Source: an uncultured cyanobacterium
GTDB lineage: Bacteria; Cyanobacteriota; Cyanobacteriia; Cyanobacteriales; CAWUOF01
Assembly (NCBI GenBank): GCA_963744145.1
Contig: CAVUSO010000001.1
Coordinates: 2,062,831-2,126,830, forward strand
DNA: 64,000 bases
Direction: 5' to 3'
Shown here: positions 4,201 to 63,564 of the stretch, one piece after another
Layout: every line of letters starts with the position of its first letter
How positions within the stretch are numbered: position 1 is the stretch's first letter
Position numbers and translations under genes: made by a program
Notes under the pieces: generated by a model
Database searches by the model: none
What the model was told of the DNA's origin: nothing
What the model saw: the letters and a program-made list of their open reading frames with translations, nothing else

Positions 4201-5267
4201 TAATCACTCACTCCCAAGATGAATCTATCCGCATAGAAGCAGCAGATAGTTTAGGGAAAATTGACCCAGGGAATCCCCAGACGATCGCGGCTTTAATTGA
4301 CTTAATCACTCACTCCCATGATGAAGATACCCGCAATCAAGCGGCATATAATTTAGGGAAAATTTGGTACATTGCCCCAGGGCATTCCCAGGCGATCGCG
4401 GCTTTAATCGACTTAATCGCTCACTCCCATGATGAAGATATCAGCAGGCAAGCGGCAGAAAGTTTAGGGTACATTGACCCAGGGAATCCCCAGGCGATCA
4501 CGACTTTGACTGACTTAATCGCTCGCTCCCAAGATGAATCTATCCGCATAGAAGCAGCAGATAGTTTAGGGTACATTGACCCATGGAATCCCCAGGTGAT
4601 CGCGGCTTTAATCGACTTAATCACTCACTCTCAGGATGAAAATATCCGCAGGCGAGCGGCATATAATTTAGGGAAAATAGGAAAAATTGCCCCAGGGCAT
4701 TCCCAGACGATCGCTATTTTAATTGACTTAATCGCTTACTCCCAGCATCACCACACCCGCTATCGAGCGGCAGAAAGTTTAGAGAAAATCCTGCTAGACG
4801 ATTTTATATCAGAAGGTGTTACTCTTTTGGGAGTAAGGCAAAATCAAGAAGGCTTCAAAGTTCTATGGCAATGTGCCCAAAAGATGTCCTATCCAGCTTT
4901 CTATGAAGCTTATACAGTTTCCACTCTTGAGTATTGTCAGAAGTGGCTGGAGATTAAACGAACCATCGGTGATAAGCGAGGTGAGGCAGATTATCTGATC
5001 GCAATAGGTACTTTATATCAACAAAGTCGGAAATTTCGGGAAGGACAGGCATTTCTTCAACAAGCTATATATATTTTACAGGAAATTAATGCACCTATTG
5101 ATGCTTATCCCTTTGCCCAGTGGTTAAAATCAATTATTAAATTTGCTAATGGGGGCAAGTTGCAGTTAGCTCTATGCTTTATTGCTGGTTTAATAGCATT
5201 TCCGATAGCATTTCCTTTGGCTTTGATGTGGTTTTTAGCAGTGTGGTTGTGGCGTAAATGGCATTAG
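1257..5267 (+). CDS. STAND (signalling NTPase) protein: N-terminal caspase-like peptidase C14 domain - NACHT NTPase - about 9 PBS-lyase-type HEAT repeats - C-terminal hydrophobic segment
   Basis: A caspase-type His/Cys dyad is present (FFAGHGL … FLDCCHSGD). Walker A is VILGEPGAGKTTLLQ, Walker B is WLFLDGADEM, and LLTCR matches the NACHT sensor motif. Ten copies of a ~40-aa unit (…IRxxAAxSLGKIDPGNPQAIAALIDLIxHSxDE…) are encoded by ~120-nt nucleotide repeats at 3700-4790. The final 50 aa are hydrophobic. Confidence 0.8.
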   Translation: MKRQALVIGINRYPFLKQHLDGPDRDANDIANLLDRPQEHPDDFTWCVERLLSAKIETEDSTVKTEELREAIQNLFLPTTKTPPEVVLLFFAGHGLRNKAGEVYLAASDVCPTRKDKWGFPIEELRELMQKSKIPQQIVFLDCCHSGDLVNGLTNLTEPELQQWNIGGSRLIVTACRDDRTAKGIGKRGVLTEALLQGLDPQNRETGYWVSTYFLYEFLMRHINYNPLLKEQIPLCYRYGEPINFWMGKGESDRLPTSTIGWWKSICEQRLEQQHAISSKFLTGIAPKIEDVYVPLGLVERQQKSRQKDGGEIDATRGSALYEETEITRRFQHHEFLENVLRRGDSPKSKGKRLVILGEPGAGKTTLLQQASRWVAAEIEDAIVLWVSLADLGGRSLEDYLLEVWLLEIVRMALEVSVSETDKKDFIVQVDQGRVWLFLDGADEMAASKPLLKIDKQIRNPGWLNKARILLTCRLNLWDSGSNPLAEFDVYRTLEFDYPVQVEQFINSWFTDLGKTDEKAIARGQQLCTALKESGKERIQDLVKNPLRLTLLCFTWHKWQGKLPDTKAGLYENFIERFYEWIENKFPVTVEKQEQLNKALGELAREAIDKELTRFRLRRKFVSKFLGSPKDKKSLFYLALQVGWLNQVGVDADNPDEPVYAFYHASFQEYFAALAVEDWQYFLHHIPQNPQLGTYRIFEKQWKQVILLWLGRENIPKDQKEEFINGLVEFHDGCRGFYKYQAYFLAAAGIAEFKTCNRSQEIVAEIVKWGFGYFDNEKQSWMTFYEPIPETARKALKETDSQKAIILITQLINTDCSESIRWQAAESLGEIDPGNPQAIAVFIDLIAHSHDEFTRWKAAEELGKIDPGNPQAIAVFIDSIAHSRVYPPSAAAKRLGKIDPGNPQAIAALIDLIAHSHSHDEYTRTSAANSLGYIAPGNPQAIAALIDLITHSHDEYTRRSAADSLGKIDPGNPQAITALIDLITHSQDESIRIEAADSLGKIDPGNPQTIAALIDLITHSHDEDTRNQAAYNLGKIWYIAPGHSQAIAALIDLIAHSHDEDISRQAAESLGYIDPGNPQAITTLTDLIARSQDESIRIEAADSLGYIDPWNPQVIAALIDLITHSQDENIRRRAAYNLGKIGKIAPGHSQTIAILIDLIAYSQHHHTRYRAAESLEKILLDDFISEGVTLLGVRQNQEGFKVLWQCAQKMSYPAFYEAYTVSTLEYCQKWLEIKRTIGDKRGEADYLIAIGTLYQQSRKFREGQAFLQQAIYILQEINAPIDAYPFAQWLKSIIKFANGGKLQLALCFIAGLIAFPIAFPLALMWFLAVWLWRKWH

Positions 5268-5412: not shown

Positions 5413-5697
5413 ATGTCACCAAATACTCTCTTACTACCCCAATTCCAAAACCTACTCAATACGCTACCCATCGAAGGAGCAGTCCGCATCGAACTTGCCG
5501 AAGGAGTCCCGATTTTTCGAGCTTCTAGTGCTGTCCAAACTCGCATTAAGGAACTGCTCGAAAAACAAAGCTCTTTTCCCTTAACGATAGAAGAAGAACG
5601 AGAACTTGACCTTTATGAAGAAATCGACGATTACCTGAGTTTTGTTAATCGGACAATTCGCAATCTTTTTTTAGCTCAAACTCAGCTTAGTTTATAA
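5413..5697 (+). CDS. Hypothetical small protein (94 aa) flanked by two direct copies of a hairpin repeat
   Basis: Clean ORF with no recognisable motif. It sits between repeat copies at 5283-5400 and 5771-5900. Confidence 0.35.
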   Translation: MSPNTLLLPQFQNLLNTLPIEGAVRIELAEGVPIFRASSAVQTRIKELLEKQSSFPLTIEEERELDLYEEIDDYLSFVNRTIRNLFLAQTQLSL

Positions 5698-7958: not shown

Positions 7959-7988
7959 GAGGAGGTTTTCGATACCTCCTCTTTTTTT
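7959..7988. terminator. Bidirectional rho-independent terminator between convergent genes
   Basis: gaggaggttttcgatacctcctc hairpin (8-bp GC-rich stem) followed by TTTTTTT on the + strand and preceded by an A-run. It serves the 136-aa gene (+) and rtcB (-). Confidence 0.75.
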
Positions 7989-9849
7989 AGCCTTTTACAC
8001 AAACAACCTGCTTTAAAGTTGCTTCTATTTGCACTAAATCTGATTGCTGTTTCATCACTTCATCAATTGGCTTATAAGCCCCAGGTATTTCATCCAGAAC
8101 TCCCTGATCTTTACGACATTCTACACCCTTAGTTTGCTGAATCAAATCATCTAAAGTATAAAGATTTTTAGCCTTATTACGAGATAACAAACGCCCAGCA
8201 CCGTGGGAACAAGAGCAATAACTTTCAGCATTACCCTTACCTTTCACAATAAAAGACTTAGCTCCCATTGAACCAGGAATAATTCCATAATCTTCTAATT
8301 TCGCTCGAACTGCACCTTTGCGAGTGACATAAACCTCTTCACCAAAATGCACCTCTTTTTCTGCATAATTGTGGTGACAATTAACCTCTAATAAAGGCTT
8401 AATAGACTTTCCTCCAGCAAGATGTTTCTCAATAATCCGACGAAAACGAGCCATCATCACATCGCGATTAAAACGAGCATAATCTTGTGCCCATTGTAAA
8501 TCCCGCCAATAGGCTGCAAATTCTGGAGTTCCAGCCACAAAATAAGCTAAATCTTTATCTGGTAAAGGATTTTCTGCCAGTTTTGCTAATTCCTTAGCAG
8601 TATCAATATGACACTGAGCTAACATATTCCCAATATGGCGAGAACCAGAGTGCAACATCAGCCAAACATAGTTTTCGGTATCGAGACAAACCTCAATAAA
8701 ATGATTACCACCACCAAGAGATCCTAATTGTTTGATCGCTTTACCTTCTAAACGTTGCACACCGGGATGTAATTCTTTAAAATCACTCCATTTCTGCCAA
8801 TTAGTTACGCTTTTTTCAACATCTTTGTTTTCATTAAATCCTACTGGAATAGATGTTTCAATATCTAAGCGAATTTGTTTGAGTTTTCCCTCTAAGCGAT
8901 CGCCTACAAATGGAGTTTTAACAGCCATCATCCCACAGTTATGAACAAATATACCAGCAGTAAGAGCAAAATTACCGTATTCTGGTACTGTCAAACAGTA
9001 AACATCTTCACTATTTGATAAAGGGATAACATCTAACACTTTGTGATTATAGCCATGTTGGGATTTTCTATGGTTATGATGCCAATGAGAATTTTTTTCT
9101 ATTAGTAATCGATGATCGGAGGAATGATTCTTATTGCCCATCAATTCTAAGTTTTCTGGTCTATGAGCAAAACCATTAAAATTCTTATGATGAATAACTG
9201 TTCTTTGATTTTCAAATGAAGGTACTTTCCCCAATAATTTTGATCGGGCAATAATCCAATGTGCTTTTTGATATTTACCTGAATAATTCTGCTGGATTAA
9301 AGTATAGCCATACTTATCTGTTTTAGAATAGAATGGCATTAAAGATACACCCGCTTTGAGCTGGTTAGCTTCTTGATATGTGCCATCTCGTAGCATAAAC
9401 TGATGATCCGTCGTACATTTGATCTCTTCCCCATTATCTAGAATTACCTTTAGTAATGAAGCGTTACGACGAGTTAAGTGTGCCCTCGCTTTTGCTGCTA
9501 CTACTCTTCCACTTGGGGTACAAGAATAAACAATAAATTCTTCAGAAAGTAAAGTTAGTTCTTTGATTGGGTAAGATTTTCCGTCTGCCAGAGGAATTAA
9601 GGTATCCCCAGTAAAACAACCAATGTCCACACCCACAGCGGCAGGAATAATTGCTTCTTTGGTCGCAATTACTGATCCGACTAAAGCACCTTTACCTAAA
9701 TGCACATCTGGCATTAAAGCAATATGCTTAAATACAAATGGTAATGATGCTACATTTCTGGCCATTTTCTGCTCTTCATGGCCCAGTAAATGTCCAGCCC
9801 ATGATAAAACTGGGCTAGGTGCGGATAATTGTAACTGTTCGTAGGGCAT
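7987..9849 (-). CDS. rtcB: RNA-splicing ligase RtcB interrupted by an in-frame intein (extein about 393 aa, intein 227 aa)
   Basis: RtcB landmarks are present: MPDVHLGKGALVGSV, then AVGVDIG|C…HN|CGMM, where the conserved GVDIGCGM is split. C-terminal motifs GGGNHF, HSGSRHIG and NCHHNY follow. Confidence 0.85.
   Translation of the reverse strand: MPYEQLQLSAPSPVLSWAGHLLGHEEQKMARNVASLPFVFKHIALMPDVHLGKGALVGSVIATKEAIIPAAVGVDIGCFTGDTLIPLADGKSYPIKELTLLSEEFIVYSCTPSGRVVAAKARAHLTRRNASLLKVILDNGEEIKCTTDHQFMLRDGTYQEANQLKAGVSLMPFYSKTDKYGYTLIQQNYSGKYQKAHWIIARSKLLGKVPSFENQRTVIHHKNFNGFAHRPENLELMGNKNHSSDHRLLIEKNSHWHHNHRKSQHGYNHKVLDVIPLSNSEDVYCLTVPEYGNFALTAGIFVHNCGMMAVKTPFVGDRLEGKLKQIRLDIETSIPVGFNENKDVEKSVTNWQKWSDFKELHPGVQRLEGKAIKQLGSLGGGNHFIEVCLDTENYVWLMLHSGSRHIGNMLAQCHIDTAKELAKLAENPLPDKDLAYFVAGTPEFAAYWRDLQWAQDYARFNRDVMMARFRRIIEKHLAGGKSIKPLLEVNCHHNYAEKEVHFGEEVYVTRKGAVRAKLEDYGIIPGSMGAKSFIVKGKGNAESYCSCSHGAGRLLSRNKAKNLYTLDDLIQQTKGVECRKDQGVLDEIPGAYKPIDEVMKQQSDLVQIEATLKQVVCVKG
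8938..9618 (-). mobile_element. Intein (227 aa) with an HNH homing-endonuclease-like insert, inside rtcB
   Basis: Starts with C FTGDTLI (block A) and has CTTDHQFML (block B). It ends IFVHN followed by the extein +1 Cys (block G). Internally, HHKNFNGFAHRPENLELMGNKNH…HWHHNH fits an HNH nuclease motif. Coordinates derive from residues 78-304 of the 620-aa ORF. Confidence 0.75.
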
Positions 9850-12248: not shown

Positions 12249-12329
12249 AAGTTTAGTGATTGCCTTTACTCTTTCCAGAATAGCAATTAGCGTGGAGTTG
12301 AGGTGGTTATTTTTCAGCGTGAGGGCAAA

Positions 12330-13433
12330 ATGCGACGGTTATTTTTTTATTTGCTGGTGGGTTTGTTAGTATTATGCTTAGGATCAGAAAGTGCGATCGC
12401 CAATATGTCCTCTCCCTGGAGTCCGGGAGACCCCATCGGAGAACCAGTTGGTGTTTTTCGTCAGTTAGATATTGTCACCGAAAAGTTATCCTTTGATTTG
12501 CGATCGCTGGCTCATCAAAATTCCGGTCAAGTCACTGCTACCTACCAAATTCGCAATTCGGGTAAAAGTGTGAGTGTTGATCTAGTTTTTATTTCTCCTG
12601 GGATTAAAACTGGTAATGTCACGTTAGATGACAAAAAAGTTTCTGCAAATATAATTCCTAAACCCTCTCTACCCCAGGAATGGGATCACCTGATCCAATT
12701 ACCAATTATGAGTGACAAAATCAACTGGGCTGATAGCGGTAGAATTAGCGTGAGTGGTGCTGGTGAATCTGCGCTTAGTTTTCAGACCATCTTACCAAGT
12801 GGAGAACATTCATTGCAAGTTAGCTATGAGATCAGACCGGGCACATATAATGGTAATGATATCTATCGAGAATATAATATTGGCTATTTATTAGCTCCCG
12901 CGCGATCGTGGGCTACTTTTGGTAAGTTAGATATTCAGGTGAATCTCCCCCATGGGTGGGAAGTAGTAACTACACCCTTAAAATTGCCACGTCAGGGTGA
13001 TACTTTAACCGGAAGTTTTGCGGGTCTTCCTAGTGATACGTTCGCGATCGCTACTCGTCCGACCTTGTGGTTATTTAGTTTAATTATTAGTATAATTGTC
13101 GAAGTTTCTATTTGGATAATGGGGTTAATTGCTTGTGTTTTTTTCGGGCAAAAATTAGCCCGAATCAGATATCGTGAAGGTACTATTGAATGGCTGCTCT
13201 CGACCGTTATTTTTTTCATACTCATGTTATGTGGTGGATTAATGGTGCCGTTCATCGGTCTAACCGGAGAATACTTTAGTTTATTAATTTTAGATAACGG
13301 ACATCTTTCTAGTAGTTGGTCTTATGGACAAAATATCTTGCGATTGTTAGTATTTCCCTTCATCGGTTTTGGCTTAGGTATTTTTCTCATGCCCTTTGCT
13401 TTTATTTATTGGCGTTATTTTCAAAAAACCTAA
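12330..13433 (+). CDS. Hypothetical exported/membrane protein (signal peptide, ~240-aa extracytoplasmic domain, 3-4 C-terminal TM helices)
   Basis: An ATG at 12330 with GAGGG upstream begins MRRLFFYLLVGLLVLCLGSESAIA, a signal-peptide-like sequence. The C-terminal third is strongly hydrophobic. No catalytic motif recognised. Confidence 0.45.
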   Translation: MRRLFFYLLVGLLVLCLGSESAIANMSSPWSPGDPIGEPVGVFRQLDIVTEKLSFDLRSLAHQNSGQVTATYQIRNSGKSVSVDLVFISPGIKTGNVTLDDKKVSANIIPKPSLPQEWDHLIQLPIMSDKINWADSGRISVSGAGESALSFQTILPSGEHSLQVSYEIRPGTYNGNDIYREYNIGYLLAPARSWATFGKLDIQVNLPHGWEVVTTPLKLPRQGDTLTGSFAGLPSDTFAIATRPTLWLFSLIISIIVEVSIWIMGLIACVFFGQKLARIRYREGTIEWLLSTVIFFILMLCGGLMVPFIGLTGEYFSLLILDNGHLSSSWSYGQNILRLLVFPFIGFGLGIFLMPFAFIYWRYFQKT

Positions 13434-30408: not shown

Positions 30409-32193
30409 TCATAAGCGATCGCGAAAGTATTGAGCATATAAATAACATCTTGGAGTGCAATCATTACCTTGCAATTTTACTAAACCCATGCTATTTAACT
30501 TAAATGCTAGAGTTGAGGGTAATCGCACTGGTAGATTGACAGTTACCACCTGTTGCATCGCTGATTTTAACTCTGGATATCTTTCTAAATTCCACAAATG
30601 ACGACGTAAATGATCGCTATAAATTCCGGTTTCTGTCGTAGCATCTTGAAGCAATTGATTGAGGGTGATATCTTGTTGGGCGATCGCATACATTGCTAAC
30701 CGTAATAAGTAGGGATGTCCTCCAACTAAATTCATGATTTGCTCTACATCATTAGGATGCCAATTCAATTGATAACATTCAGCTAATTTTTCCACTTGCT
30801 GGGGACTAAATTCAGTTAATTCTATTGGTAAACCAACATTAAAAGGTGACTTATTTACATCTAAGGGGATATAAACTTCGGTGGAGTGAACTACTACTAA
30901 ACGAAAATTTTTCCAAATATTACGACGTTTAGATTCTTCATGGAGAGAACGCAATAAGCCAAAAAAATCATCTGCAATTTCGGGGGATTCAAAAAGGCGA
31001 TCGACTTCATCTAATCCTAGTGTTAAAGGTTGAGATATTTCTGGTAATAAATATTCCTCAAAGTAAGCTTTACAGCTTTGATTGCTACCGATGATTTCGG
31101 CTAAATCTGCATATTTGGCTAGTTGCGATCGGTCTAATAAACCCAATTCTAAACTAACATTAGCGCAAAACCACTGTAAAAAAGCATCTGAATTGGTAAA
31201 AACCCGTTGATTAGCTAATTGAAAACTCAAAGCAACAGTTTTCAATCCTTGACTTTCTGCATAATGAATAATTCTAGCCATTAAGGAAGTTTTGCCCATC
31301 TGTCTCGGTGCTTTAATCCGAATTAGGGCTCCTGGTTGCATAATTCTTTCATAACACCTAGTTTCTATCGGGGGGCGATCGATATAAAAACGAGAGTCTA
31401 AATTTACTTGTCCTTCCGGTAATTCTGGTGCTGAAGTAGGCAAAGGATGATAATATTTAGTTACTGTTTCTTTGAAAGTTTTATTGGTAGTAATAATATT
31501 ATCCCACGCGATCGCTAACTCCTGATCATGACTTAATGTAGTGCGTTTTTCCTTAATGATATTAATAATTTTGGTAATTAAAATATCTATATTATTACCA
31601 CAGTTCCAACACCAAGGCTGAATTTCCTGTAAATATCCTAGTAAATCAAAGGAAATTTCATATTTCCAGGGCAAATTTAGACAAATTGGTAAAATTGCTG
31701 GTTTTTGCGGAGTAGTATGGTGTAACTCCCTCACTAAACGCACTTGTTCTGAGATCATTTCACTGATCCCTGTAGTCTCCGATAGCAGTAGCAAAAAATA
31801 ATCTGACTGTTTTAAATATAAGTCGGTCGGAATATGACTATTATTCACAAAAATTTCATAACCTGCTGCTTGTAAATGTTGTTGTAGCTGAAACGCGAGC
31901 AGAGCATCTGAGTGACAATAACTAAGCCAAATTTTGGTAATTATATTTGTCGTTGTTTCCGAGACAGATTTATCATCGAAATCAGCAATATCACGCCATT
32001 CTAGCCCTAAGATCCGACAAATTTCGAGGAAATTGGCAAAATCTACAGGTTTACCATTGAGAAAATTGCTGACCGTAGATTGGGCGATCGCTAAATTTTC
32101 CGCGAGAATTTTCTGACTGGGAAAACCATGTCGTAACAGAGAGGACTTGATTTTTGCGGTGTACTCTGGACGCACCTTTAGGGATCTGGACAT
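30409..32193 (-). CDS. HTH (XRE-like) - TIR-like domain - AAA_35-type P-loop NTPase protein (594 aa)
   Basis: The N-terminus LAENLAIAQSTVSNFLNGK is a helix-turn-helix. KIWLSYCHSDALLAFQLQQHLQAAGYEIFVN…DYFLLLLSE fits the TIR/TIR_2 core (flavodoxin-like βα start xFISYxxxD…L…G…vFxD). IRIKAPRQMGKTSLMARI is the Walker A of the cyanobacterial 'AAA-like' (PF14516-type) domain, and LTLGLDEVD is the Walker B. The C-terminal ~200 aa is helical. Confidence 0.6.
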   Translation of the reverse strand: MSRSLKVRPEYTAKIKSSLLRHGFPSQKILAENLAIAQSTVSNFLNGKPVDFANFLEICRILGLEWRDIADFDDKSVSETTTNIITKIWLSYCHSDALLAFQLQQHLQAAGYEIFVNNSHIPTDLYLKQSDYFLLLLSETTGISEMISEQVRLVRELHHTTPQKPAILPICLNLPWKYEISFDLLGYLQEIQPWCWNCGNNIDILITKIINIIKEKRTTLSHDQELAIAWDNIITTNKTFKETVTKYYHPLPTSAPELPEGQVNLDSRFYIDRPPIETRCYERIMQPGALIRIKAPRQMGKTSLMARIIHYAESQGLKTVALSFQLANQRVFTNSDAFLQWFCANVSLELGLLDRSQLAKYADLAEIIGSNQSCKAYFEEYLLPEISQPLTLGLDEVDRLFESPEIADDFFGLLRSLHEESKRRNIWKNFRLVVVHSTEVYIPLDVNKSPFNVGLPIELTEFSPQQVEKLAECYQLNWHPNDVEQIMNLVGGHPYLLRLAMYAIAQQDITLNQLLQDATTETGIYSDHLRRHLWNLERYPELKSAMQQVVTVNLPVRLPSTLAFKLNSMGLVKLQGNDCTPRCYLYAQYFRDRL

Positions 32194-34090: not shown

Positions 34091-36721
34091 ATGGAAAAAT
34101 CCTATCAATATCAAGTTGGTGGAAGTTTACCGGAAAATGCACCGACTTATGTAGTAAGACAAGCTGACTTTGAGTTATTCGAGTACCTGAAAGCAGGAGA
34201 GTTTTGCTATGTCCTAAATTCCCGACAAATGGGAAAATCTAGTTTGCTAGTTCGCACTATGCAAAGGTTAATTGCTGCGGGAATTTCCTGTGCTAGTATC
34301 GATATTTCGGATCTCGGTAGTAAACAAATTTCTTTAGACCAATGGTATGGTGGTGTTGCTTATAAACTGGTGAGTAGTTTTAATATCTGTGATACTGTTG
34401 AGTTTATGAATTGGTGGCGATCGCGAGAATTAATTTCTCCGGTGCAGCGTTTAAGTGATTTAATCGAAAATTTGCTTCTCACCAGACTTGCAGGAAAATT
34501 GGTAATTTTTATTGATGAAATTGATAGTGTTTTAAGTTTTAATTATTGTCTGGATGATTTTTTTGCTTTAATTCGTGCTTGCTATAATAAACGCGCTCAA
34601 AATTTAGAATATAATCGATTAACTTTTGCCCTTCTCGGAGTTGCTACACCATCAGATTTAATCGCTGATCATACCAGAACACCGTTTAATATTGGTAGAG
34701 CGATTTCTCTGAATGGTTTTAGTTTAGCAGAAGCTCAACCCTTAGCTCATGGATTAGCAGCAAAAGTAGAAAATTCTCAACAAGTTCTCGCAGATATTTT
34801 AATTTGGACAGGAGGACAGCCATTTTTAACCCAAAAACTATGTCAAATTATTCTCCATACTTCGATTTCTGATCAGCAAGATTGGTTAGAGCATTTAGTC
34901 CGATCGCATATTATTGAAAATTGGGAATATCAAGATGAACCAGTCCACATTAAAACCGTGCGTGATCGTCTCCTCAGAAATCAACAAAGGGCAAGTAAAT
35001 TACTGGGAATCTATCAAAAAATCTTACAAGATAGTAAAATAATTGCTGACGATAGCCCCGAACAAATCGAATTACAGCTATCAGGTTTAGTCGTTAAATG
35101 TCAAGGTTATTTACGGGTTAATAACCTGATATATGCGTCTATTTTTAATCAAAATTGGGTGGAAAAATCTCTGTTTGATCTGCGCCCTTATGCTGAAGTA
35201 TTAGCAGCTTGGTTAGCTTCCCAATGTCAGGATGAATCGCGATTATTACGTGGAAAAGCTTTGCAAGATGCCAGGGAATGGGCTAATCATAAAAGTTTGA
35301 GTACCCCAGATTATCAATTTTTAACTGCTAGTCAAGAATATGAATTAGCTGAATTCCGCAAAAAAGAACAACAAACCCAAATTGAAATTACTCGACTTTC
35401 CCAGGAAAAAGAATTATTAGAAAAATTAAACCAAGAACAAGAACAACGTAAATTAATAGAAAAACAACTCCGACAGGAACGGATGCTTAAAGCTGAAATA
35501 ATGGTGAGATTATCTGCTGCTTTAATCGCGATTATAGCTTTTCTGATCGGTACATTCTGGGTGAAATCATCCATTGATGATAACCGAGAAAAAATTATCT
35601 CTATCAGTTTATTTTCTGAAGCCCTATTTGAAGAAGGTAGACCCCTAGATGCCCTCAGAGAAAGTATTAAAGCTGGAATAGAATTAAAAAAATCCTTGGA
35701 TATAGATGCTGCTACTCAGATGCGGGCTTTAATGGCATTAAACCAAGCAGTTTATAGCTTTCAAGAACGAGAAAAATTGCTGGGATATACCAGTAAAGTT
35801 ACTTTTGTAAATTTCAGTCCTGATAGTCAGATCATTGCTACTGCGAATACAGATAAAACTATCAAACTTTGGCAAAAAAATGGTAAATTTCTCTCAGTTT
35901 TAGCAGGGCATGACGCTACTATTTACAGTTTGAGTTTTAGTCCAAATGGTCAGATGATCGCTTCCGCAAGTGCAGATAAAACCGTCAAACTTTGGCAGCA
36001 GAGTGGCAAATTGATTACCACTTTAAAAGGACATACTGCTGCTATTTATAGTGTTATTTTTAGCCCTAATGGTAAGTTAATTGCATCTGCTAGTGGTGAT
36101 GGAACTGTAAAAATTTGGCAACTTAATGGTAAGTTAGTTACTACTTTAAAAGATAATGATGCTCCAATTTATAGTATTAGTTTTAGTCCGGATGGTCAAA
36201 AAATTGCATCTGCTAGTGGTGATGGAACTGTAAAAATTTGGCAGTCTGATGGGAAGTTTCTTCAGATTTTAAATGAACATAATGCTGCGGTGTTAAGTGT
36301 TAGTTATAGTCCAGATGGAACTATGCTTGCTTCTGCTAGTGCTGATGGTACGGTCAGACTTTGGGAGTCAAATGGTAAACGCTTAAGTATTTTTCGACAT
36401 AAAAGTAGAGTAAATAGTATTAGTTTTAGTTCGGATAATCAGATCATTGCTTCTGCTAGTGCTGATAAAATGGTTAGATTGTGGCACCGCGATGGGACGC
36501 TAATCAAAACTTTAAAAGTTCATCAAGATCAGGTTTTAAGTGTAAATTTTAGTCTAGATGGTATGATGTTGGGTTCAGTAAGTTCTGATGGAAATGTCAT
36601 TCTTTGGAATTTACAACTTGAAGATTTGTTGAAAGCAGCTTGTCAAATTATAGGCGATCGCGATCATATTTCCCAGGTCGATCAAAATGACCTACATCTG
36701 TGCGACGGTGTTTTTAGATAG
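34091..36721 (+). CDS. AAA_35-type NTPase - coiled coil - TM helix - 8x WD40 repeat protein (876 aa)
   Basis: [22 protein letters not shown] is the same NTPase family as the TIR protein. [10 protein letters not shown] is Walker [19 protein letters not shown] coiled coil follows. The TM segment is [18 protein letters not shown]. Eight repeats of …ASASxDxTVKLW… (WD40) are present. Confidence 0.7.
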
Positions 36722-38044: not shown

Positions 38045-40348
38045 TTGCTAATTCTTGCTGGTGCAACTCTTTTTATTAGTGCCTTTCTGCTGTTCTGGGT
38101 GCAGTTAATGGTCGCTAAAATGATTTTACCGCTTTTAGGAGGTTCTCCTGGGGTCTGGAATACTTGTCAATTTTTTTTCCAAGCCACTTTATTGTTTGGT
38201 TATGGATATTCCCATGTAACTACGCGGTGGTTAAATATTCGTCGTCAAGTGATCATTCAGATTATTTTAATTGTACTACCTTTACTAATTTTACCCATCA
38301 CTATATCTAAAAATTGGATTCCTCCCCATGATACTAATCCCATTCCTTGGCTATTACTATTGTTAATTTTATCTGTAGGATTACCCTTTTTTGTTGTCTC
38401 TACCACTGCTCCTTTAGTCCAAAAATGGTTTGCTGATAGTAATCATCCTCACGGTCATGATCCTTATTTTCTCTATACTACTAGTAATCTCGGTAGTATG
38501 TTAGGATTGATTTTCTATCCGGTGCTAATTGAACCAAATCTCTCTCTGACTAATCAAGCTTGGTTATGGACAAATGGTTACAGATTATTGATTATTTTAA
38601 TTTTTGGTTGTGTCATTTATTGGTGGCGATCGCTTCAACTAGAACCGCTTACTAAAGTAATTGAATCTCCATCTACCGCTCCCTCTCTACTTCAGCAAGC
38701 TCAATGGGTATTACTGTCTTTTTTACCATCTAGCTTACTGTTAGGAGTTACCACTTATATTACTACCGATCTAGCTGCTATTCCCCTTTTATGGGCTGGA
38801 CCATTAGCGATTTATTTATTAACATTTATTTTGACATTTGCTCGAAAAACAATTCTTCCTTATCGGACTTTCATCTCACTTTTGCCCTTAATTTTAACAT
38901 CATTGATTTTATTATTTTTGCTAAAAATAATGTCACCGATTTGGTTATTATTACCTTTACATTTAGGAGGATTTTTTGTAACTGCTTCTGTATTTCATGG
39001 AGAATTAGCAAGAAATCGTCCACAACCAGAAAATTTGACACTTTTTTATTGGTGGGTTTCCTTTGGTGGGGTGTTAGGTGGATTATTTAATGCGATCGCT
39101 GCACCATTAATATTTCCATCTGTCATGGAATATCCACTCATGATGATTGTCGCTCTATTACTATTGCAAAATCCCGACCAGGAAAAATTAGATCCGCAAC
39201 AAGTCACCCCAGATGAATTAGAACGGATCACCAATACCTTCGGACAGGAAGTAATCGCAAAATTAGCGATCCAAACTAAAGAAAAACCCGTGATTAACTC
39301 ATCAAATATTTTGAGTTTATCAAAAACTCTCCCCTTAAGCATCGGGGTCTTAAGTGGTAGTTTATTGGTGGGCTTAGAGATAGATTCTATTACTAATAAT
39401 TTACTGGGTAATGTGCTGGCTTTTAGTGTGCTAATTGGCATTTTTTATGCTTTTAAATTACCTTTTTGGCGAGTAGTAGTTGGGGTGATTTTAATTATGT
39501 TTATCAGCCATTTTTCTGTGGGAAATATGGGGGGAGTCATTAGAGCTGAACGAAGTTTTTTTGGGATTTCGAGAATATTATATGATGCAAATGGAGGTTA
39601 TCATAGTCTATTACATGGTACGACTTTACATGGTAAACAAAGTCTTGATCCTAAACGTAGTCAAGAACCCTTAACTTATTTTTATCCAACTGGACCAATT
39701 GGACAACTATTTCAAGTTTTAGCTGTTACTAAACCAACTAATATTGCGGTGCTAGGATTAGGTGTAGGGAGTTTAGCTGCTTATTCACAACCAAACCAAA
39801 ACTGGACATTTTACGAAATTGATCCGACCGTAGAAAAGTTAGCATCAGATCCGCGTTATTTTACTTTTTTACGAGACTCAAAAGCACCAGTGAAGATAGT
39901 TTTAGGTGATGGTCGTCTCCGTTTAGCTGAAGTTACTGATCACAGTTATGATATTATTTTTATGGATGCTTTTAGCTCTGATTCAATCCCAGTTCACTTA
40001 GTCACAAGAGAAGCACTGGAACTTTATTTGCAAAAATTAACTCCATCAGGACTAATTGCGATTAATATTACTAATCGTCTCATCAATCTGGAACCAGTAA
40101 TCGGAACTTTAGCCAACAATTTTGGATTATCTACCCTCCACCAATGGGAAAAAGATATTTCTGAAACAGAAAAGAACCTGGGTAAAGCACCTTCTCATTG
40201 GGTCCTATTAACTCGCGATCGCCAAAATTTTGGTAATCTTATTAATGATCCGCGTTGGGAACCAATTCCTGACTATAATACTTCTTTATGGACTGATAAT
40301 TTTTCTAATATTTTCCAAGTCCTCCGGATTTTTGACAATCCAGAGTGA
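38045..40348 (+). CDS. Polytopic membrane protein fused to a C-terminal spermidine-synthase-like (PABS, class I SAM-MTase fold) domain
   Basis: The N-terminal ~480 aa is highly hydrophobic with about 12 TM segments. The C-terminal domain has VLGLGVGSLAAY (GxGxG) and DIIFMDAFSSDSIPVHL, typical of spermidine/spermine synthase-family proteins. The true start may be a non-ATG codon upstream. Confidence 0.6.
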   Translation: MLILAGATLFISAFLLFWVQLMVAKMILPLLGGSPGVWNTCQFFFQATLLFGYGYSHVTTRWLNIRRQVIIQIILIVLPLLILPITISKNWIPPHDTNPIPWLLLLLILSVGLPFFVVSTTAPLVQKWFADSNHPHGHDPYFLYTTSNLGSMLGLIFYPVLIEPNLSLTNQAWLWTNGYRLLIILIFGCVIYWWRSLQLEPLTKVIESPSTAPSLLQQAQWVLLSFLPSSLLLGVTTYITTDLAAIPLLWAGPLAIYLLTFILTFARKTILPYRTFISLLPLILTSLILLFLLKIMSPIWLLLPLHLGGFFVTASVFHGELARNRPQPENLTLFYWWVSFGGVLGGLFNAIAAPLIFPSVMEYPLMMIVALLLLQNPDQEKLDPQQVTPDELERITNTFGQEVIAKLAIQTKEKPVINSSNILSLSKTLPLSIGVLSGSLLVGLEIDSITNNLLGNVLAFSVLIGIFYAFKLPFWRVVVGVILIMFISHFSVGNMGGVIRAERSFFGISRILYDANGGYHSLLHGTTLHGKQSLDPKRSQEPLTYFYPTGPIGQLFQVLAVTKPTNIAVLGLGVGSLAAYSQPNQNWTFYEIDPTVEKLASDPRYFTFLRDSKAPVKIVLGDGRLRLAEVTDHSYDIIFMDAFSSDSIPVHLVTREALELYLQKLTPSGLIAINITNRLINLEPVIGTLANNFGLSTLHQWEKDISETEKNLGKAPSHWVLLTRDRQNFGNLINDPRWEPIPDYNTSLWTDNFSNIFQVLRIFDNPE

Positions 40349-44244: not shown

Positions 44245-44703
44245 ATGGCCAAACGAGTTCAGTTAGTTTTAAATCAAGATGTCAGCAAATTGGGAAAATC
44301 TGGTGATTTAGTTGAAGTTGCACCAGGATATGCTCGCAATTATCTAATTCCCCATAAGATTGCTGTTAATGCTACTCCCGGTTTGCTCAAGCAAGTAGAA
44401 AGAAAAAGAGAACAAGAGCGTCAACGTCTATTAGAAGAAAAACAACAAGCAGAAAGTCGCAAGAATGCGATCGAAGCTACAGGTAAGTTTAGCATTTCTA
44501 TGCAGGTTGGTGAAAATGAGGCGATCTTTGGTAGTGTCACTGCTTCTGATGTTGCCGAAGTAATTCAATCAGTAACTGGTCAAGAAGTAGATCGACGTGG
44601 AATTACTATTCCAGATATTCGCAAACTTGGCACCTATAAAGCGGAAATCAAACTTCACCCAGAAGTCACAGCTCAAGTGGAAATTGAAGTTGTAGCTAAT
44701 TAA
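44245..44703 (+). CDS. rplI: 50S ribosomal protein L9
   Basis: [41 protein letters not shown] is the canonical L9 N-domain. Length 152 aa. Confidence 0.9.
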
Positions 44704-44706
44704 CCA

Positions 44707-44727
44707 GGACAGTCAAGATGACTGTCC
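44707..44727 (+). terminator. Palindromic hairpin after rplI (GGACAGTCAAGATGACTGTCC)
   Basis: Perfect 9-bp stem with a 3-nt loop immediately after the stop. It belongs to the GGACAG…CTGTCC palindrome family seen at 7068, 54558, 54610, 56609 and 56652. Confidence 0.5.
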
Positions 44728-44821
44728 CACAATTGGTAATTGGTATTGATTAATATTACCAATTACCTCCATTTTCACGGTAATATGAATATTAACATCC
44801 TCCATCAACCCATGATTTACT

Positions 44822-46600
44822 GTGGCTAGCGATCGCTTACCTCCCCAAAATATCGAAGCGGAAGAAAGCATTCTGGGTGGGATTCTGTTAGATCCAGAAG
44901 CCATCACCAGAGTAGCAGAAATTCTAGCGCCAGATCAATTTTCTATTACTGCTCATCAAACTATCTATCGCGCTGCTCTCACCTTAAATAGTCAAGGGAA
45001 ACCAACTGATTTAATGAGTGTCACGAGTTGGTTAGCTGACCACCATTTGCTCGAAAAAGTTGGTGGACAAAATAAACTAGCTGACCTAGTAGATCGGACT
45101 GTCTCAGCTATAAATATTGATCAATATGCTGAGTTAGTCTTAGATAAATATATCCGTCGTAAATTAATCCATACTGGTCACGAAATTGTCGAATTAGGTT
45201 ACGAAACCTCAACGGAATTAGAAATAGTATTAGATCGCGCTGAACAGAAAATATTTAGTATTACTCAGGATCGTCCTCAATCAGGTTTAGTACCGATCAC
45301 TGATACTCTCATCCATGCTTTTCAGGATATTGAAACCTATAATCAAGGATTAGCACTACCTGGTTTACCTTGTGGTTTTTATGATTTAGACGCAATGACT
45401 GGTGGTTTTCAACCTTCTGATTTAATTATTATTGCGGGAAGACCATCCATGGGGAAAACTGCTCTTTCTGTCTGTATTGCGAGAAATATGGCAGAAATTC
45501 ATCAATTACCAGTGGCAATTTTTAGTTTAGAAATGTCAAAGGAACAACTGGTACAACGTTTATTAGCAAGTGAAGCTGGAATTGAAAGTAATCGATTACG
45601 AGCTGGAAGAGTTAGTCAATCAGAATGGGAACCTTTAAGTAGTGCGATCGGCACCTTATCGGAATTGTCAATATTTATTGATGATACTGCCAATATTACA
45701 GTGACAACAATGCGGAGTCAATCGCGTCGTCTCCAAGCAGAATTTGGGGGAAAGTTAGGATTAATTTTAATCGATTATCTGCAATTAATGGAAGGAGGAA
45801 ATAGTGATAATCGGGTGCAAGAGTTATCAAAGATTACTCGCAGTTTAAAAGGTTTAGCTCGGGAATTAAATGTGCCAATTATTGCTTTATCTCAGCTTAG
45901 TCGAGGAGTGGAAGCAAGAAATAATAAACGTCCGATGCTTTCTGATTTAAGAGAAAGTGGATGTTTAACCGGAGAAAGTTTGGTAAATTTAGCAGATCAT
46001 AATGTTATTGTACCAATTCGAGCATTAATCGGACAAGCTGGTTTTACAGTTTGGGCATTAAATCAATCTACCATGAAATTAGAAAGGGCAATGGTGAGCA
46101 ATGTCTTTTCGACCGGAATTAAGTCAGTATTTAATTTAATCACTAGATTAGGAAGTAAAATTAAAGCCACTCTCAATCACAAATTTCTCACTATCGATGG
46201 ATGGAAAAGACTAGATGAATTACAAGCAAATTTAAGGAGAAAAATTACCTTAAAAGTTGCTAATATTCTTCCATCTAATGACCTTACCAATAGCGAGGTT
46301 AATTGGGATGAGATAGTTTCCATAGAATACAGTGGAGAGGAAGAAGTATTTGACCTTTCTGTACCTAAGCTGCATAATTTTATTGCCAACAACATAATTG
46401 TTCACAATAGTATTGAACAGGATGCAGATTTAGTAATTATGCTGTATCGGGATGAGTATTATAATCCTGATACCGTCGATCGAGGATTAGCAGAGATGAT
46501 TATAGCTAAACATCGCAATGGCCCAACTGGAACTGTCAAATTATTGTTTAATCCCCAATATACTCAATTCCGCAATTTAGCTACACCTAATCGTGTTTAG
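44822..46600 (+). CDS. dnaB: Replicative DNA helicase DnaB interrupted by a 149-aa mini-intein (GTG start)
   Basis: The N-domain LPPQNIEAEESILGGILLDP is present. Walker A is GRPSMGKTALS. The H4 region …SDLRESG|C…HN|SIEQDADLV is split exactly where the Synechocystis DnaB intein sits. RNGPTG is near the C-terminus. Confidence 0.85.
   Translation: MASDRLPPQNIEAEESILGGILLDPEAITRVAEILAPDQFSITAHQTIYRAALTLNSQGKPTDLMSVTSWLADHHLLEKVGGQNKLADLVDRTVSAINIDQYAELVLDKYIRRKLIHTGHEIVELGYETSTELEIVLDRAEQKIFSITQDRPQSGLVPITDTLIHAFQDIETYNQGLALPGLPCGFYDLDAMTGGFQPSDLIIIAGRPSMGKTALSVCIARNMAEIHQLPVAIFSLEMSKEQLVQRLLASEAGIESNRLRAGRVSQSEWEPLSSAIGTLSELSIFIDDTANITVTTMRSQSRRLQAEFGGKLGLILIDYLQLMEGGNSDNRVQELSKITRSLKGLARELNVPIIALSQLSRGVEARNNKRPMLSDLRESGCLTGESLVNLADHNVIVPIRALIGQAGFTVWALNQSTMKLERAMVSNVFSTGIKSVFNLITRLGSKIKATLNHKFLTIDGWKRLDELQANLRRKITLKVANILPSNDLTNSEVNWDEIVSIEYSGEEEVFDLSVPKLHNFIANNIIVHNSIEQDADLVIMLYRDEYYNPDTVDRGLAEMIIAKHRNGPTGTVKLLFNPQYTQFRNLATPNRV
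45962..46408 (+). mobile_element. DnaB mini-intein (no endonuclease domain)
   Basis: Begins CLTGESLV (block A) and ends IIVHN followed by the extein +1 Ser. It is 149 aa, too short for a homing endonuclease. Coordinates derive from residues 381-529. Confidence 0.75.
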
Positions 46601-47557: not shown

Positions 47558-47935
47558 TTATAAAGACAAAGCAAGAGATTGGGTTGGCAAATCCTGAATC
47601 TTTGTCAACTGCTGATCATTGGTTAGTAATGTTGCCTCTAAACTAAGGGTTGTGGCTACGATAATAGCATCGGGGAGTTTTAACTTGTATTGTCGTCGCC
47701 ATTGAATAGCTAGATTTTTGATCACGTCATTAATATTAATGATAGTCAAATGACTTAAAAAACTATAAATTAGCTGTGCTTCAGCATCACTTAATCCGGG
47801 ATAAGATAACAGTTCCATCTCTGTAATGATAGAAACAAAATAAAGACCAGAAGGGAAAGGCTGCTCTAAGCGATTTCCCAAATGGTAGAGAGCAATATTG
47901 GTATCTACAACCAAACGAGGTAACGTTAGAGCCAT
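47558..47935 (-). CDS. vapC: VapC PIN-domain toxin
   Basis: LVVDTNIALYHL (N-terminal D), …EMEL…, LTNDQQL. Length 125 aa. Overlaps the upstream antitoxin gene by 10 nt. Confidence 0.65.
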   Translation of the reverse strand: MALTLPRLVVDTNIALYHLGNRLEQPFPSGLYFVSIITEMELLSYPGLSDAEAQLIYSFLSHLTIININDVIKNLAIQWRRQYKLKLPDAIIVATTLSLEATLLTNDQQLTKIQDLPTQSLALSL

Positions 47936-48159
47936 CCGTTTCTTACCTCACGTTGATACTCTAAAGGGTCAAGTGTTAGTTTAATACTGCCAGCATAATC
48001 CGCTAATTTCTGAGAAGACCCTACATCATTTTTAGAGCTAACCTCCTGCTCATATTGTTGTAACAACGCCTCAATTTTTTGCCAATCTTGGTAATTAATA
48101 ATCACCGCCACAGGATTAAAAGTTTCATCCATGACAATTTGCTTTTTAATCGATCGCAT
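47926..48159 (-). CDS. vapB: Antitoxin partner of VapC (Phd/YefM- or VapB-like)
   Basis: 77 aa. It overlaps the toxin start and has the typical N-terminal β-strand …VAVIINYQDWQKIEALL. Confidence 0.5.
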   Translation of the reverse strand: MRSIKKQIVMDETFNPVAVIINYQDWQKIEALLQQYEQEVSSKNDVGSSQKLADYAGSIKLTLDPLEYQREVRNGWL

Positions 48160-57530: not shown

Positions 57531-59366
57531 CTAATTTTTTGGTTCGTGAGTACCAATTAAATAACCATCCGGAGCATAAGTTTCTAGAGGTAACTGAGCA
57601 TTATCGCTAATGGTTTCAAGCGCATCTTCTAAAGAACGCAAATGTTCGATGATGCCAGCACGAGTTTTGATATCATCAGTTGCACCTAAAGTAGAAATCG
57701 TTTCCTTATAATCAGAAGTAATCCGCACTTTGATTTTATCTCGACTGGCAATAAAAGAACAAATCGTGGGCGAACCAGAACAAATTTGGCTTAAATCATG
57801 ATTGGTTTGCTGTAAAATATTCGCCCATTTCAAACTATTTTCAGCTTGCTTTAACGCATCTGTATAGGAAACTATTAACTGTTGAGCTTGATGATAATAA
57901 AAAGTTTCAGAAGGAATTTGCTGGGCATAAATTAAAGCTCGGTTCCAATTCGCGATCGCTTTATTCCATTGATTATCTTGTTCCCAATTTTTGGCAAGGA
58001 AAGCAAAGTTGACTGATTGAGTATAATTAGTGATCGCTAATTTTTCTTGATTATGGCGATCGCGAGCTTTAATTAATTTAGCTTGGTAAGGGGTTAATAA
58101 TTCTTGCGCTTCAGTAAACCCCATCGTTCCCGGAGGGATGGCTTTAAGTAAATCTACAGCTTTTTGCCAGGTTGATTCGACCGATTGCCAATTTTCTCTC
58201 GATACGGCAATTCCTTGAGCTGCTTCGGCACCATGAGCGGTTGATTGAGCTAGACTTAGTTGTTTTTGTGATTGTTCTTCTGCTCGTAAACGTGAATTGA
58301 CCGTCTTGAGATTAATGCGATACTCCTGTAATTTTTGTTGAGCGAGTGGATATAAATTATTACTAGAGGGAATTTTTTCGAGTTTATCGATCGCTTCTTG
58401 CCATAATATTTGCAAATCTGACCACATCTGCAAGGAATGGGGTACATTTTCACCTGCTTGAACTGCGGCTCCAACCAAGCGTCCGGCAGTGACTAATTGT
58501 TCCAGAGTAGTCAGTTGGGTTTGATCGGTAGCTAATAATTTTTGGGCAGAGGAATAGTAACTAGACCAGAAGGGGATCGGTCTTAACATCGCTGTTGCGA
58601 CTGCTAATTGCTGTGTAGCTTTGACTAACCCTTCCTGGGATTTATCTAACTCAATCGTTTTCGCTGACTCCTGACTTAAGACTTGCGCTGTATCGATCGC
58701 ATTACACTTACCCACCACACAGGGACGATTGAATAGGTAAATTAGTCCTAGGGTAATTAAGAAACCAAGACTAGCTCCAGCTAACACAGCAATTGCGGGT
58801 GTAACTACAAAAGAATCCTGGCTAATTTCTGCGGGATCTTCTTCAGTAATTACGGTTTCGCTACTAGCATCTGGTAAAGTAACTATCTCTGGGTTAACTT
58901 CTGAGATGGGCTGTTGGGGTTCTAGCAGCGTTGCTGGTTCCCTTGGTTCTGGTTCTTGATCGTCAGTTGCTAATTGAGCCAATTCCGTGATGCTGTTCAA
59001 ACTTGCTGGACTCTGAGCAATCGAGTCCAACCTCACATTAGACTCAGTTGGTGGAGACCAAGGTTGAGGTTTAAAAGTAAAAGTATGAAAAGAATAAGGT
59101 TGTTTTTGTCCCGTAACTCGCAAATAGAGTCGGACTTGCTGGGTCAATTCGATCGCTTGAGTTAAGATTGCTTGTTGCAAAGTAGCAAAGGTTTGTTGTT
59201 GATCGGGTGCTACTTCTGCTGGATGTTGAGCAAGAACCATCAAAGTTCCTTTCTTCAGGACACACTGAATCTGAATTGGAACATAATGAGATAATTCTGC
59301 GAGTAAACGCTCTTGTAAAAATTGCCCTAAAGCTTGTAGCTCATTTTGCTTTACTGCTGTTTTCAT
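57531..59366 (-). CDS. Hypothetical bitopic membrane protein (611 aa; ~190-aa cytoplasmic N-domain, 1 TM, ~390-aa helical periplasmic domain)
   Basis: Long clean ORF with a single TM (AIAVLAGASLGFLITLGLIYLF). The C-terminal domain is helical and TPR-like. Confidence 0.45.
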   Translation of the reverse strand: MKTAVKQNELQALGQFLQERLLAELSHYVPIQIQCVLKKGTLMVLAQHPAEVAPDQQQTFATLQQAILTQAIELTQQVRLYLRVTGQKQPYSFHTFTFKPQPWSPPTESNVRLDSIAQSPASLNSITELAQLATDDQEPEPREPATLLEPQQPISEVNPEIVTLPDASSETVITEEDPAEISQDSFVVTPAIAVLAGASLGFLITLGLIYLFNRPCVVGKCNAIDTAQVLSQESAKTIELDKSQEGLVKATQQLAVATAMLRPIPFWSSYYSSAQKLLATDQTQLTTLEQLVTAGRLVGAAVQAGENVPHSLQMWSDLQILWQEAIDKLEKIPSSNNLYPLAQQKLQEYRINLKTVNSRLRAEEQSQKQLSLAQSTAHGAEAAQGIAVSRENWQSVESTWQKAVDLLKAIPPGTMGFTEAQELLTPYQAKLIKARDRHNQEKLAITNYTQSVNFAFLAKNWEQDNQWNKAIANWNRALIYAQQIPSETFYYHQAQQLIVSYTDALKQAENSLKWANILQQTNHDLSQICSGSPTICSFIASRDKIKVRITSDYKETISTLGATDDIKTRAGIIEHLRSLEDALETISDNAQLPLETYAPDGYLIGTHEPKN

Positions 59367-61965: not shown

Positions 61966-63564
61966 TCAAAATTGGCAAAAACATAAAAACATGATGACCA
62001 TGAGGGTAGCTGTTGTCCATAATACTTGATTTTTTGTTTTCATCAATAGCATTATTTGAGCAATTACAGCGTAGATCAAAATTGCTATCCCTAAGGAACC
62101 CATACAAATTATGGCTTGAGTTTTATCCTGACTTTCGGTGCCAATTAAAATGTAGAATAAGGTGGGGATAATCGCGATGATCAAATTAATTGCGATCGCT
62201 AAAATTGCCGGACTTTTTTCACCCCACAACAAATCTGAGACGATCGACTGTTTCCACCACTTTTGACCAATTGATTTTTGCTGATACCTAGCCCAATCCT
62301 GTAAGCTTTGACGCTGAGGTGAGAGCATCATAATTAGCCCCAAAAACATCAGCAGATTTACAACTAAGAAAGGTAAATCGCTTAAGTGACTTCTTCCGAG
62401 GTAGAAAAATCCGAGGATGATTATTTCAAAACAAGCGACAAACAAATAACTTTGTCTTTTATTAAAAATAGTCGCTTCTGAATTGCGAAAGCAACGTAAT
62501 AATCCCAGCCAAATCCACCCAGTCCAACAAATATAATTACCTAGGATTAGACTAGCTAAAATGACAATATTCTGACCAATCGGTAAGTCAAACCATTGCC
62601 ATTCTAATAAACTTTTATAGGAAAAATATAATTCTCCTATAGAGGAAAAATGTCCTTTATCTATTTCTACTACATATTGTGAGTGAAACGCCATATATGG
62701 AATATATACCGTAGGATAAAATAAATTAAACCAGTCGGTTACCTGATGATTAATTGGCTGATTAGAGCTAGACAATGTTTGGGATGTAAATCCCAACAAA
62801 GTTAAAACTAAACCACTTCCTAACCAGGATTGAAATCCATTTAACCCAGAACTAACTAGCCCAAATAACATGGCAGCACTATAGAAAAAGAGGCAACTAG
62901 CAGCTAAAATCCCATAGAAACTGAAAATTATCCAGACTGGAATTTGGGCTGATAAACCAGCACATAGATGTAAGGGGATCGTGAGAATAATTCCCCAATA
63001 AAGTAAACTCGGAACTCCTAGTAATTTTCCCACAAAAATTTTATAGGTTGACTGGGGACTGAGTCTAATAAAATTCAGAGTTCCTCGACGTTCTTCTTGA
63101 GTAATATCGTTGATTAGTAGATAAATACCGATCGTTAATAAAGCAAACACACTAATAAAGCTCAACCACAGAAAGATATCGAACCACCAGTGAGACCACT
63201 CAATAGTGGGATGTCCATTTGTCAGTAAACATTCCCGACTGATATTAGATCCTGTTGGTGGTGGTGGTGGTGGTGGTAAATGCCGTAAATATTCCCGACT
63301 GATACTGGGTGGTGGTGCAGGCAAATTCCGAACCCTGGAAACACTGTGTGATACATAATGGAAACTTAAGTAATTATCAGGATTGCAATCATTTCCTATC
63401 AAATAGCCATATAATTTAGTCCAAAAAGATAAAATGGTGTAGATTTGACTAAATAAGGATATCCCCGTGGCGATCGCGACGGAATTCCGATTCAACCGAC
63501 CTTTAATTTCTCGGTATAACTGAGGGTTCCAGTTAGCAATTTTTTCGAGCCACAGTAGATTCAT
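61966..63564 (-). CDS. Hypothetical polytopic membrane protein with a poly-proline tract, probably frameshifted at its 3' end
   Basis: About 12 TM segments and a PPPPPPPTGS tract. After its stop, a different frame (ORF 61883..62107) encodes …MFLPILSLFSIKLTQKIRIAGESASQALL, which parallels the 63574..63843 ORF. Confidence 0.45.
   Translation of the reverse strand: MNLLWLEKIANWNPQLYREIKGRLNRNSVAIATGISLFSQIYTILSFWTKLYGYLIGNDCNPDNYLSFHYVSHSVSRVRNLPAPPPSISREYLRHLPPPPPPPTGSNISRECLLTNGHPTIEWSHWWFDIFLWLSFISVFALLTIGIYLLINDITQEERRGTLNFIRLSPQSTYKIFVGKLLGVPSLLYWGIILTIPLHLCAGLSAQIPVWIIFSFYGILAASCLFFYSAAMLFGLVSSGLNGFQSWLGSGLVLTLLGFTSQTLSSSNQPINHQVTDWFNLFYPTVYIPYMAFHSQYVVEIDKGHFSSIGELYFSYKSLLEWQWFDLPIGQNIVILASLILGNYICWTGWIWLGLLRCFRNSEATIFNKRQSYLFVACFEIIILGFFYLGRSHLSDLPFLVVNLLMFLGLIMMLSPQRQSLQDWARYQQKSIGQKWWKQSIVSDLLWGEKSPAILAIAINLIIAIIPTLFYILIGTESQDKTQAIICMGSLGIAILIYAVIAQIMLLMKTKNQVLWTTATLMVIMFLCFCQF

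Follow-up and report, generated by a model that had tools for sequence, protein, structure and literature searches.

The dnaB gene in a 64,000-nucleotide stretch of DNA from an uncultured cyanobacterium (the window; GenBank assembly GCA_963744145.1, contig CAVUSO010000001.1, positions 2,062,831 to 2,126,830) is interrupted by a 149-residue intein. This element is very probably a cis-splicing mini-intein of class 1, which is fixed in the H4 DNA-binding loop of the chromosomal DnaB helicase and whose excision is predicted from its sequence. The initial annotation gave it the coordinates 44822-46600; these describe the open reading frame (ORF) correctly but span the whole dnaB gene, and the intein itself occupies 45962..46408 (Table 1).

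Re-translation of the ORF confirmed the length of 149 residues and the two junctions that had been quoted, …SDLRESG/CLTGESLV… and …IIVHN/SIEQDADLV… (slashes mark the intein-extein boundaries), including the terminal His-Asn and the Ser at position +1. The proposed alignment to the DnaB inteins of Synechocystis sp. PCC 6803 (Ssp) and Nostoc punctiforme (Npu) was run, and blocks A, B, F and G were all found to be intact. Cys1 is the sole cysteine of the intein, and His73 can be recognised as the block B histidine because the aligned residue is Ala in 6FRE, the H73A mutant of the Ssp DnaB intein. The block F stretch EEVFDLSVPKLHNF is present, and the C-terminal end reads …VFDLSVPKLHNFIANNIIVH148-N149/S+1, with Asn149 encoded by AAT (46406-46408) and Ser+1 by AGT (46409-46411). 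Pfam Intein_splicing matches residues 389-529 of the precursor (E=2.6e-29), and the NCBIfam models intein_Nterm and intein_Cterm score above their cut-offs (TIGR01443 intein_Cterm: 30.7 bits versus 15.6). The host protein was recognised by the Pfam DnaB N-terminal domain (E=3e-31), by DnaB_C (E=1.3e-105, residues 181-585 with a gap) and by TIGR00665 DnaB (E=1.6e-200). When the exteins are joined, a DnaB of 443 residues with the sequence RESGSIEQD is obtained, as in 39 of the 42 cyanobacterial alleles without an interruption; the remaining three read RESGAIEQD. Block A, the TxxH motif, blocks F and G, the predicted HINT fold and an insertion whose removal restores the host protein together mark the element as a class 1 intein that is predicted to splice.

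The insertion point, judged by alignment, is identical to that of the Ssp DnaB intein, as the initial annotation had claimed, and lies between the Gly of RESG and the Ser of SIEQD. A full-text literature search for the SIEQD junction peptide together with DnaB gave no match, and the junction was taken from PDB chains instead. The chains 6FRH, 6FRG and 6FRE (Ssp DnaB mini-intein variant M86) carry the native flanks LRES(G)/[C1A]ISGDSL…IIVH[N→A]/SIEQD, and the window sequence LRESG/CLTGESL…IIVHN/SIEQD aligns with them residue for residue. There are three intein sites in DnaB, of which b lies in the P-loop, whereas both a and c are found in motif H4 at a distance of two residues from each other; to this motif the start of the C-extein is assigned from the same sources (PMC4760082, PMC6195587). 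The window site belongs to the H4 pair and is either a or c in the naming of PMC4760082. In a survey of the 80 best cyanobacterial loci, 7 had an intein that is shifted upstream by exactly two residues relative to the window's site (RE/C…SHN/SG[AS]IEQD), which fits the published spacing of a and c. At these neighbouring-site loci (L023, L035, L036, L037, L047, L056 and L079; dnaB match ~3001-5600) the junction reads …RE/C…GIVSHN/SG[AS]IEQD, and the intein of L023 is a mini-intein while the other six are full length. The P-loop of the window protein, GRPSMGKT, is uninterrupted, and therefore this DnaB contains a single intein.

Splicing would start with the translation of the 592-residue precursor, after which Cys1 would perform an N-to-S acyl shift at the Gly(-1)-Cys1 bond with the help of Thr70 and His73 of block B. 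The thioester would then be attacked by Ser+1, giving a branched ester, and cyclisation of Asn149 to a succinimide with the assistance of His148 would free the 149-residue intein. A final O-to-N shift would generate a normal peptide bond, and the product would be a 443-residue DnaB with RESGSIEQDAD, in which the junction peptide …LRESGSIEQDADLV… is expected. For the annotation, this means that the mature helicase would have 443 residues and not 592.

The HINT fold is common to class 1 inteins, BIL domains, class 3 inteins and split inteins, so the fold would also be in accord with one of the latter three, and BIL and class 3 structures do occur in the Foldseek list of structural matches, albeit far down. 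The probability that the element is one of them is close to nil. BIL domains lie in variable, non-conserved parts of proteins and mostly have neither a +1 nucleophile nor a canonical splice junction, whereas the window element has Cys1, the terminal His-Asn and the +1 Ser and is an in-frame insert at a canonical site for inteins, where the sequence of this essential protein is highly conserved. The two halves of a split intein are encoded by separate genes, but here one unbroken ORF of 592 codons encodes the whole element. In addition, its identity to the two class 1 DnaB inteins of Ssp and Npu amounts to 51-62% in structural and ~58-69% in sequence alignments.

The absence of an endonuclease domain, which had been noted in the initial annotation, was borne out, as no LAGLIDADG or HNH Pfam family matched the window intein even at E<=1. 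A reference profile was built from eleven 429-residue inteins at the same DnaB site, which hold two LAGLIDADG motifs, LLGHLIGDGC and FLRHLWSTDG; both are absent from the window intein. Its residues 1-89 align with profile positions 1-89 and its residues 88-149 with positions 365-429, while positions 90-366 (~277) and 3 further residues nearby are missing. The deletion junction is thus located at about residue 89/90, and 89 N-terminal and 60 C-terminal residues have been kept. As the size of the deletion leads glocal hmmalign to put the C-terminal half in the wrong place, local hmmsearch domains and fixed N89+C40 cores were used. The ancestor was very probably a 429-residue LAGLIDADG-containing intein of the type found at the same site in other cyanobacteria, which suffered a single internal deletion of ~277 residues (90-366) plus a nearby deletion of three residues. 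As the endonuclease has been deleted, the intein can no longer home, and its persistence is explained by the fact that any excision other than a precise one would damage the essential helicase.

According to the alignments, the linker 3' of the deletion junction is a remnant of the full-length insert and not new sequence. A pairwise HMMER alignment had equated its ANILPSN with HLALPRN of the Npu intein; this was dropped, as the profile and the multiple alignment put NLRRKITLKVANI at the insert's C-terminal end, and the LP resemblance of the two peptides is possibly due to convergence.

The fold of the intein was predicted with AlphaFold from a 17-sequence alignment, and the model reached a predicted local distance difference test score (pLDDT) of 78 and a predicted template-modelling score of 0.72. 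In a Foldseek search of the PDB, the model matched the Npu DnaB intein 4O1R best (E=2.7e-18, target-normalised template-modelling (TM) score 0.93, root-mean-square deviation 1.6 Å), followed by the Ssp DnaB structures and then by other inteins; of the 50 matches listed, almost all are inteins or HINT domains. In a control model of the Npu mini-intein, HLALP (chain residues 95-99) forms a β-strand with a pLDDT of 94, and at the equivalent place of the chain ITLKVA (intein residues 95-100) is modelled as a strand in the window intein, with a pLDDT of 54-62. That ITLKVA fills the position of the lost strand is suggestive only, because a few other natural mini-inteins are also devoid of the LP strand, for example a 136-residue intein with …RLDQLRQEMALKVVDSHIDWDE. 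The more far-reaching idea that the window intein is a HINT domain that was naturally re-wired after a deletion whose reach into the N-terminal lobe exceeds that of all others in the sample is rather unlikely. If it were true, the position of the strand could be filled by unrelated sequence, and the intein would be a new natural template for the design of minimal or split inteins. The atypical deletion boundary as such could show which linker elements of the HINT fold are dispensable.

Several of these observations, together with the limited view of the genome, speak against a cis-splicing mini-intein. The left endpoint of the deletion (position 89) is the most N-terminal one sampled, compared with 91-156 in the other natural mini-inteins and 101 and 106 in the engineered ones, and the conserved strand EHL(C/A)LPR that follows GWKRLDEL was lost, although most other mini-inteins at this site have kept it. 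Only one of five AlphaFold models had a pLDDT above 62, and the replacement linker, with a pLDDT of 54-62, is the part of the model with the lowest confidence. Furthermore, the window covers 64 kb of a genome of ~7.6 Mb, which could contain a second, intein-free dnaB copy. The lost strand, the low confidence in the linker and the partial view of the genome would be compatible with a decayed, splicing-dead remnant, in which case either this dnaB copy would be non-functional and another helicase gene would be present, or DnaB would tolerate an insertion of 149 residues in H4. The latter is hardly to be expected because H4 is the DNA-binding loop (PMC4760082). A dead remnant is also difficult to reconcile with the intact catalytic residues, the open reading frame and the conservation of the intein, as identity to the nearest relatives is 73-78% for the splicing core and 75-81% for the exteins of these proteins, and the two thus seem to be under comparable purifying selection. 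Lastly, 62 of the 80 loci have an L9 gene 5' of dnaB and in the same orientation, and from this conserved rplI-dnaB order, which the window shares, it follows that the window gene is the chromosomal replicative helicase. A dead remnant is, therefore, a highly improbable explanation. The catalytic residues, the open frame, the location in an essential single-locus gene whose synteny is conserved and the conservation of the core favour the reading that the intein still splices.

In the locus survey, the site was empty in 42 of the 80 loci, 20 had a mini-intein of 141-215 residues, 11 had the full 429-residue intein and 7 had an intein at the neighbouring H4 site, so that the exact junction of the window is occupied in 31. 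The 120 best protein matches, which were retrieved with the full precursor as the query (the intein alone gave only 10 matches), extend the lengths of the natural mini-inteins to 136-245 residues. When the mini-inteins from the 80 loci and 130 proteins were mapped on the full-length profile, ~25 distinct pairs of deletion endpoints were found, and therefore the endonuclease has been lost many times independently. Repeated loss of the homing endonuclease is expected in the homing-cycle model, and the diversity of the endpoints illustrates this prediction. Several natural mini-inteins have kept only the first LAGLIDADG motif (e.g., L006, L008, L025 and P0122), and endonuclease decay at the window's site forms a graded series. 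The window intein adds one more data point to this natural series at a single site, which includes empty alleles, full 429-residue inteins and mini-inteins with different endpoints.

Within this series, the window intein is an ordinary, lineage-specific member of a large known family. Its splicing core is at most ~78% identical to any other sampled, be it full length or mini, and the precursor remained a singleton at 90% clustering. The closest DnaB exteins are those of Microcoleus sp. FACHB-672 (81%); among the matches listed, the best-segment extein identity was 79% for Coleofasciculus sp. H7-2 and 78% for Oscillatoria princeps, and no locus exceeded ~80% among the matches listed in the genome scan. 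The intein is not the smallest one and is not distinct in function, and the atypical deletion boundary is its only mildly interesting feature. Its gene segment is slightly more AT-rich than the host gene (GC content 33.6% versus 38.6% in the exteins).

The persistence of inteins without endonuclease in many cyanobacterial lineages could be taken to indicate that the intein splices but serves as a conditional, stress-sensing switch on replication. This has been proposed for the mycobacterial intein DnaBi1, and oxidative stress was indeed shown to inhibit DnaBi1 of Mycobacterium smegmatis (Msm), which occupies the P-loop site b, belongs to class 3 and is redox-sensitive via a second cysteine (PMC6195587). 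In contrast, Msm DnaBi2 and the DnaBi of M. tuberculosis (Mtu) are class 1 inteins at H4 site a with Ser+1, and DnaBi2 retains the endonuclease (PMC6195587). By these published descriptions, the mycobacterial inteins reside in the same helicase, but the window intein is devoid of the second cysteine of DnaBi1. With Cys1 as the sole cysteine, an intra-intein disulfide redox switch of the DnaBi1 type is excluded. Moreover, persistence is equally well explained by the difficulty of precise deletion, and the 42 relatives with an empty site manage without any intein there. A regulatory role is, therefore, very doubtful.

Among the inteins with known structure, that of Npu (4O1R) is the closest (E=8e-54, 62-69% identity), and it shares the site and the chemistry of the window intein. 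The Ssp DnaB intein (1MI8/6FRx; match with E ~1e-44, 51-58% identity) agrees with the window intein in the class 1 residues, among them His73, and in the HINT fold (TM score 0.80-0.91). The initial annotation had called the window intein a natural mini-intein and had offered the Ssp and Npu mini-inteins as comparators. The term natural is correct for the window intein, but both comparators are engineered deletions of 429-residue inteins, and the word is meaningful precisely because these textbook examples are laboratory constructs. Likewise, 4O1R is not a natural mini-intein, as the literature describes it as the engineered NpuDnaBΔ290 (139 residues), which has an architecture similar to that of the window intein and cis-splices efficiently in experiments. 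In its native form, the Ssp DnaB intein has 429 residues; for the mini-intein of 154 residues, 275 of these were deleted in the laboratory, and 106 residues were left on the N-terminal and 48 on the C-terminal side (PMC6213604). Thus, the native Ssp form carries a LAGLIDADG endonuclease and its mini form was engineered, whereas the deletion in the window intein is natural and leaves 89 and 60 residues. The Npu mini-intein keeps the strand KEHLALPR (profile 2-101 and 390-429) and no part of the insert's C-terminal end; the window intein, in contrast, is without this strand and retains profile positions 365-390.

Natural but uncharacterised mini-inteins occur at this site in, for example, Planktothrix (141 residues), Dolichospermum/Aphanizomenon (137 residues), Microcystis sp. 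T1-4 (142 residues) and Nostoc/Phormidium/Floridaenema (172-189 residues). The natural cyanobacterial mini-inteins have the site, the family and the loss of the endonuclease by internal deletion in common, but their endpoints differ between lineages. The Planktothrix and Nostocales examples have a second, endonuclease-containing intein in the P-loop, which the window DnaB does not have. Such two-intein DnaB proteins (P0012, P0014, P0029, P0041 and P0069, including Planktothrix, Aphanizomenon and Sphaerospermopsis) combine an endonuclease-containing P-loop intein of 347-426 residues (GRPSMGK/CLS…CVHN/T) with a natural mini-intein of 136-144 residues at H4. As natural mini-inteins at this site are widespread, the argument for novelty or usefulness is weak. 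The initial annotation had suggested a use as a compact splicing element; the intein is compact, but smaller characterised inteins exist, namely NpuDnaBΔ290 and gp41-1 (125 residues), and as an engineering part it has no clear advantage over these or over the Ssp DnaB mini-intein.

Table 1. Features of the dnaB gene, its intein and other parts of the window (positions in the 64,000-nucleotide stretch)
Feature	Position	Strand	Remarks
Caspase-NACHT-HEAT repeat protein	1257..5267	+	1336 residues
RtcB tRNA-splicing ligase	7987..9849	-	620 residues; Pfam RtcB E=7e-119
RtcB intein	~8938..9618	-	227 residues; Pfam Intein_splicing E=2e-18
HTH-TIR-AAA_35 protein	30409..32193	-	594 residues
AAA_35-WD40 protein	34091..36721	+	876 residues
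rplI (ribosomal protein L9)	44245..44703	+	immediately 5' of dnaB; Pfam
dnaB precursor ORF	44822..46600	+	GTG start, 592 residues plus stop; one intein
[quoted passage not shown]
Mini-intein	45962..46408	+	149 residues, precursor residues 381-529; class 1 HINT domain without homing endonuclease
Cys1 (TGT), block A nucleophile	45962..45964	+	in the alignment, matches position 1 in both the Ssp and the Npu DnaB intein
Block B, T70-L-N-H73 (TxxH)	46169..46180	+	sequence alignment
Linker, intein residues 88-112 (QANLRRKITLKVANILPSNDLTNSE)	46223..46297	+	profile and multiple alignment
Blocks F and G (EEEVFDLSVPKLHNFIANNIIVHN)	46337..46408	+	terminating with His148-Asn149
C-extein	46409..46597	+	63 residues; opens SIEQDAD with Ser+1; DnaB H4 DNA-binding motif
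Two short overlapping ORFs	47558..48159	-	77 residues, then 125 residues

The start assigned to dnaB is sound because homologues open at a matching …RLPPQNIEAEE… stretch; an in-frame stop is located three codons 5' of the GTG codon. The spacer between rplI and dnaB (44704..44770) contains two perfect hairpins, the first of which, GGACAGTCA-aga-TGACTGTCC, lies directly 3' of the rplI stop, while the second, GGTAATTGGTA…TACCAATTACC, follows ~25 nt past the first. Neither was scored as a terminator in a consensus scan because a T-run is missing. Promoter-like and terminator-like matches near dnaB were no commoner than in shuffled sequence, and Rfam gave no match within the 64-kb window. The HIP1 octamer GCGATCGC occurs in 74 copies in the window, compared with ~0.3 expected from the base composition, and one copy overlaps the start region of dnaB (~44829-44836). 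The abundance of HIP1 and the closest DnaB exteins are marks of a cyanobacterium.

A second intein, in RtcB, had also been reported in the initial annotation and proved to be real by its match to Pfam Intein_splicing, so that at least two inteins are present in the strain, one in DnaB and one in RtcB. The junctions of the RtcB intein read …AAVGVDIG/CFTGDTL…GIFVHN/CGMMAV, with Cys+1. An HNH-like stretch (VIHHKNFNGFAHRPENLELMGNKNHSSDH) is present in its insert, and no Pfam HNH family matched at E<=1; judged by sequence, the insert may represent an HNH endonuclease that is small or in decay.

For four further long ORFs of the window, at 38045..40348 (+, 767 residues), 57531..59366 (-, 611 residues), 61966..63564 (-, 532 residues) and 12303..13433 (+, 376 residues), no Pfam family was found at E<=1e-5. 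Three large proteins (1336, 594 and 876 residues; Table 1) are of multidomain signalling or NTPase types, and such proteins are similar to those of conflict or programmed-cell-death-like systems in filamentous cyanobacteria. The two short overlapping ORFs on the minus strand look like a candidate toxin-antitoxin pair.

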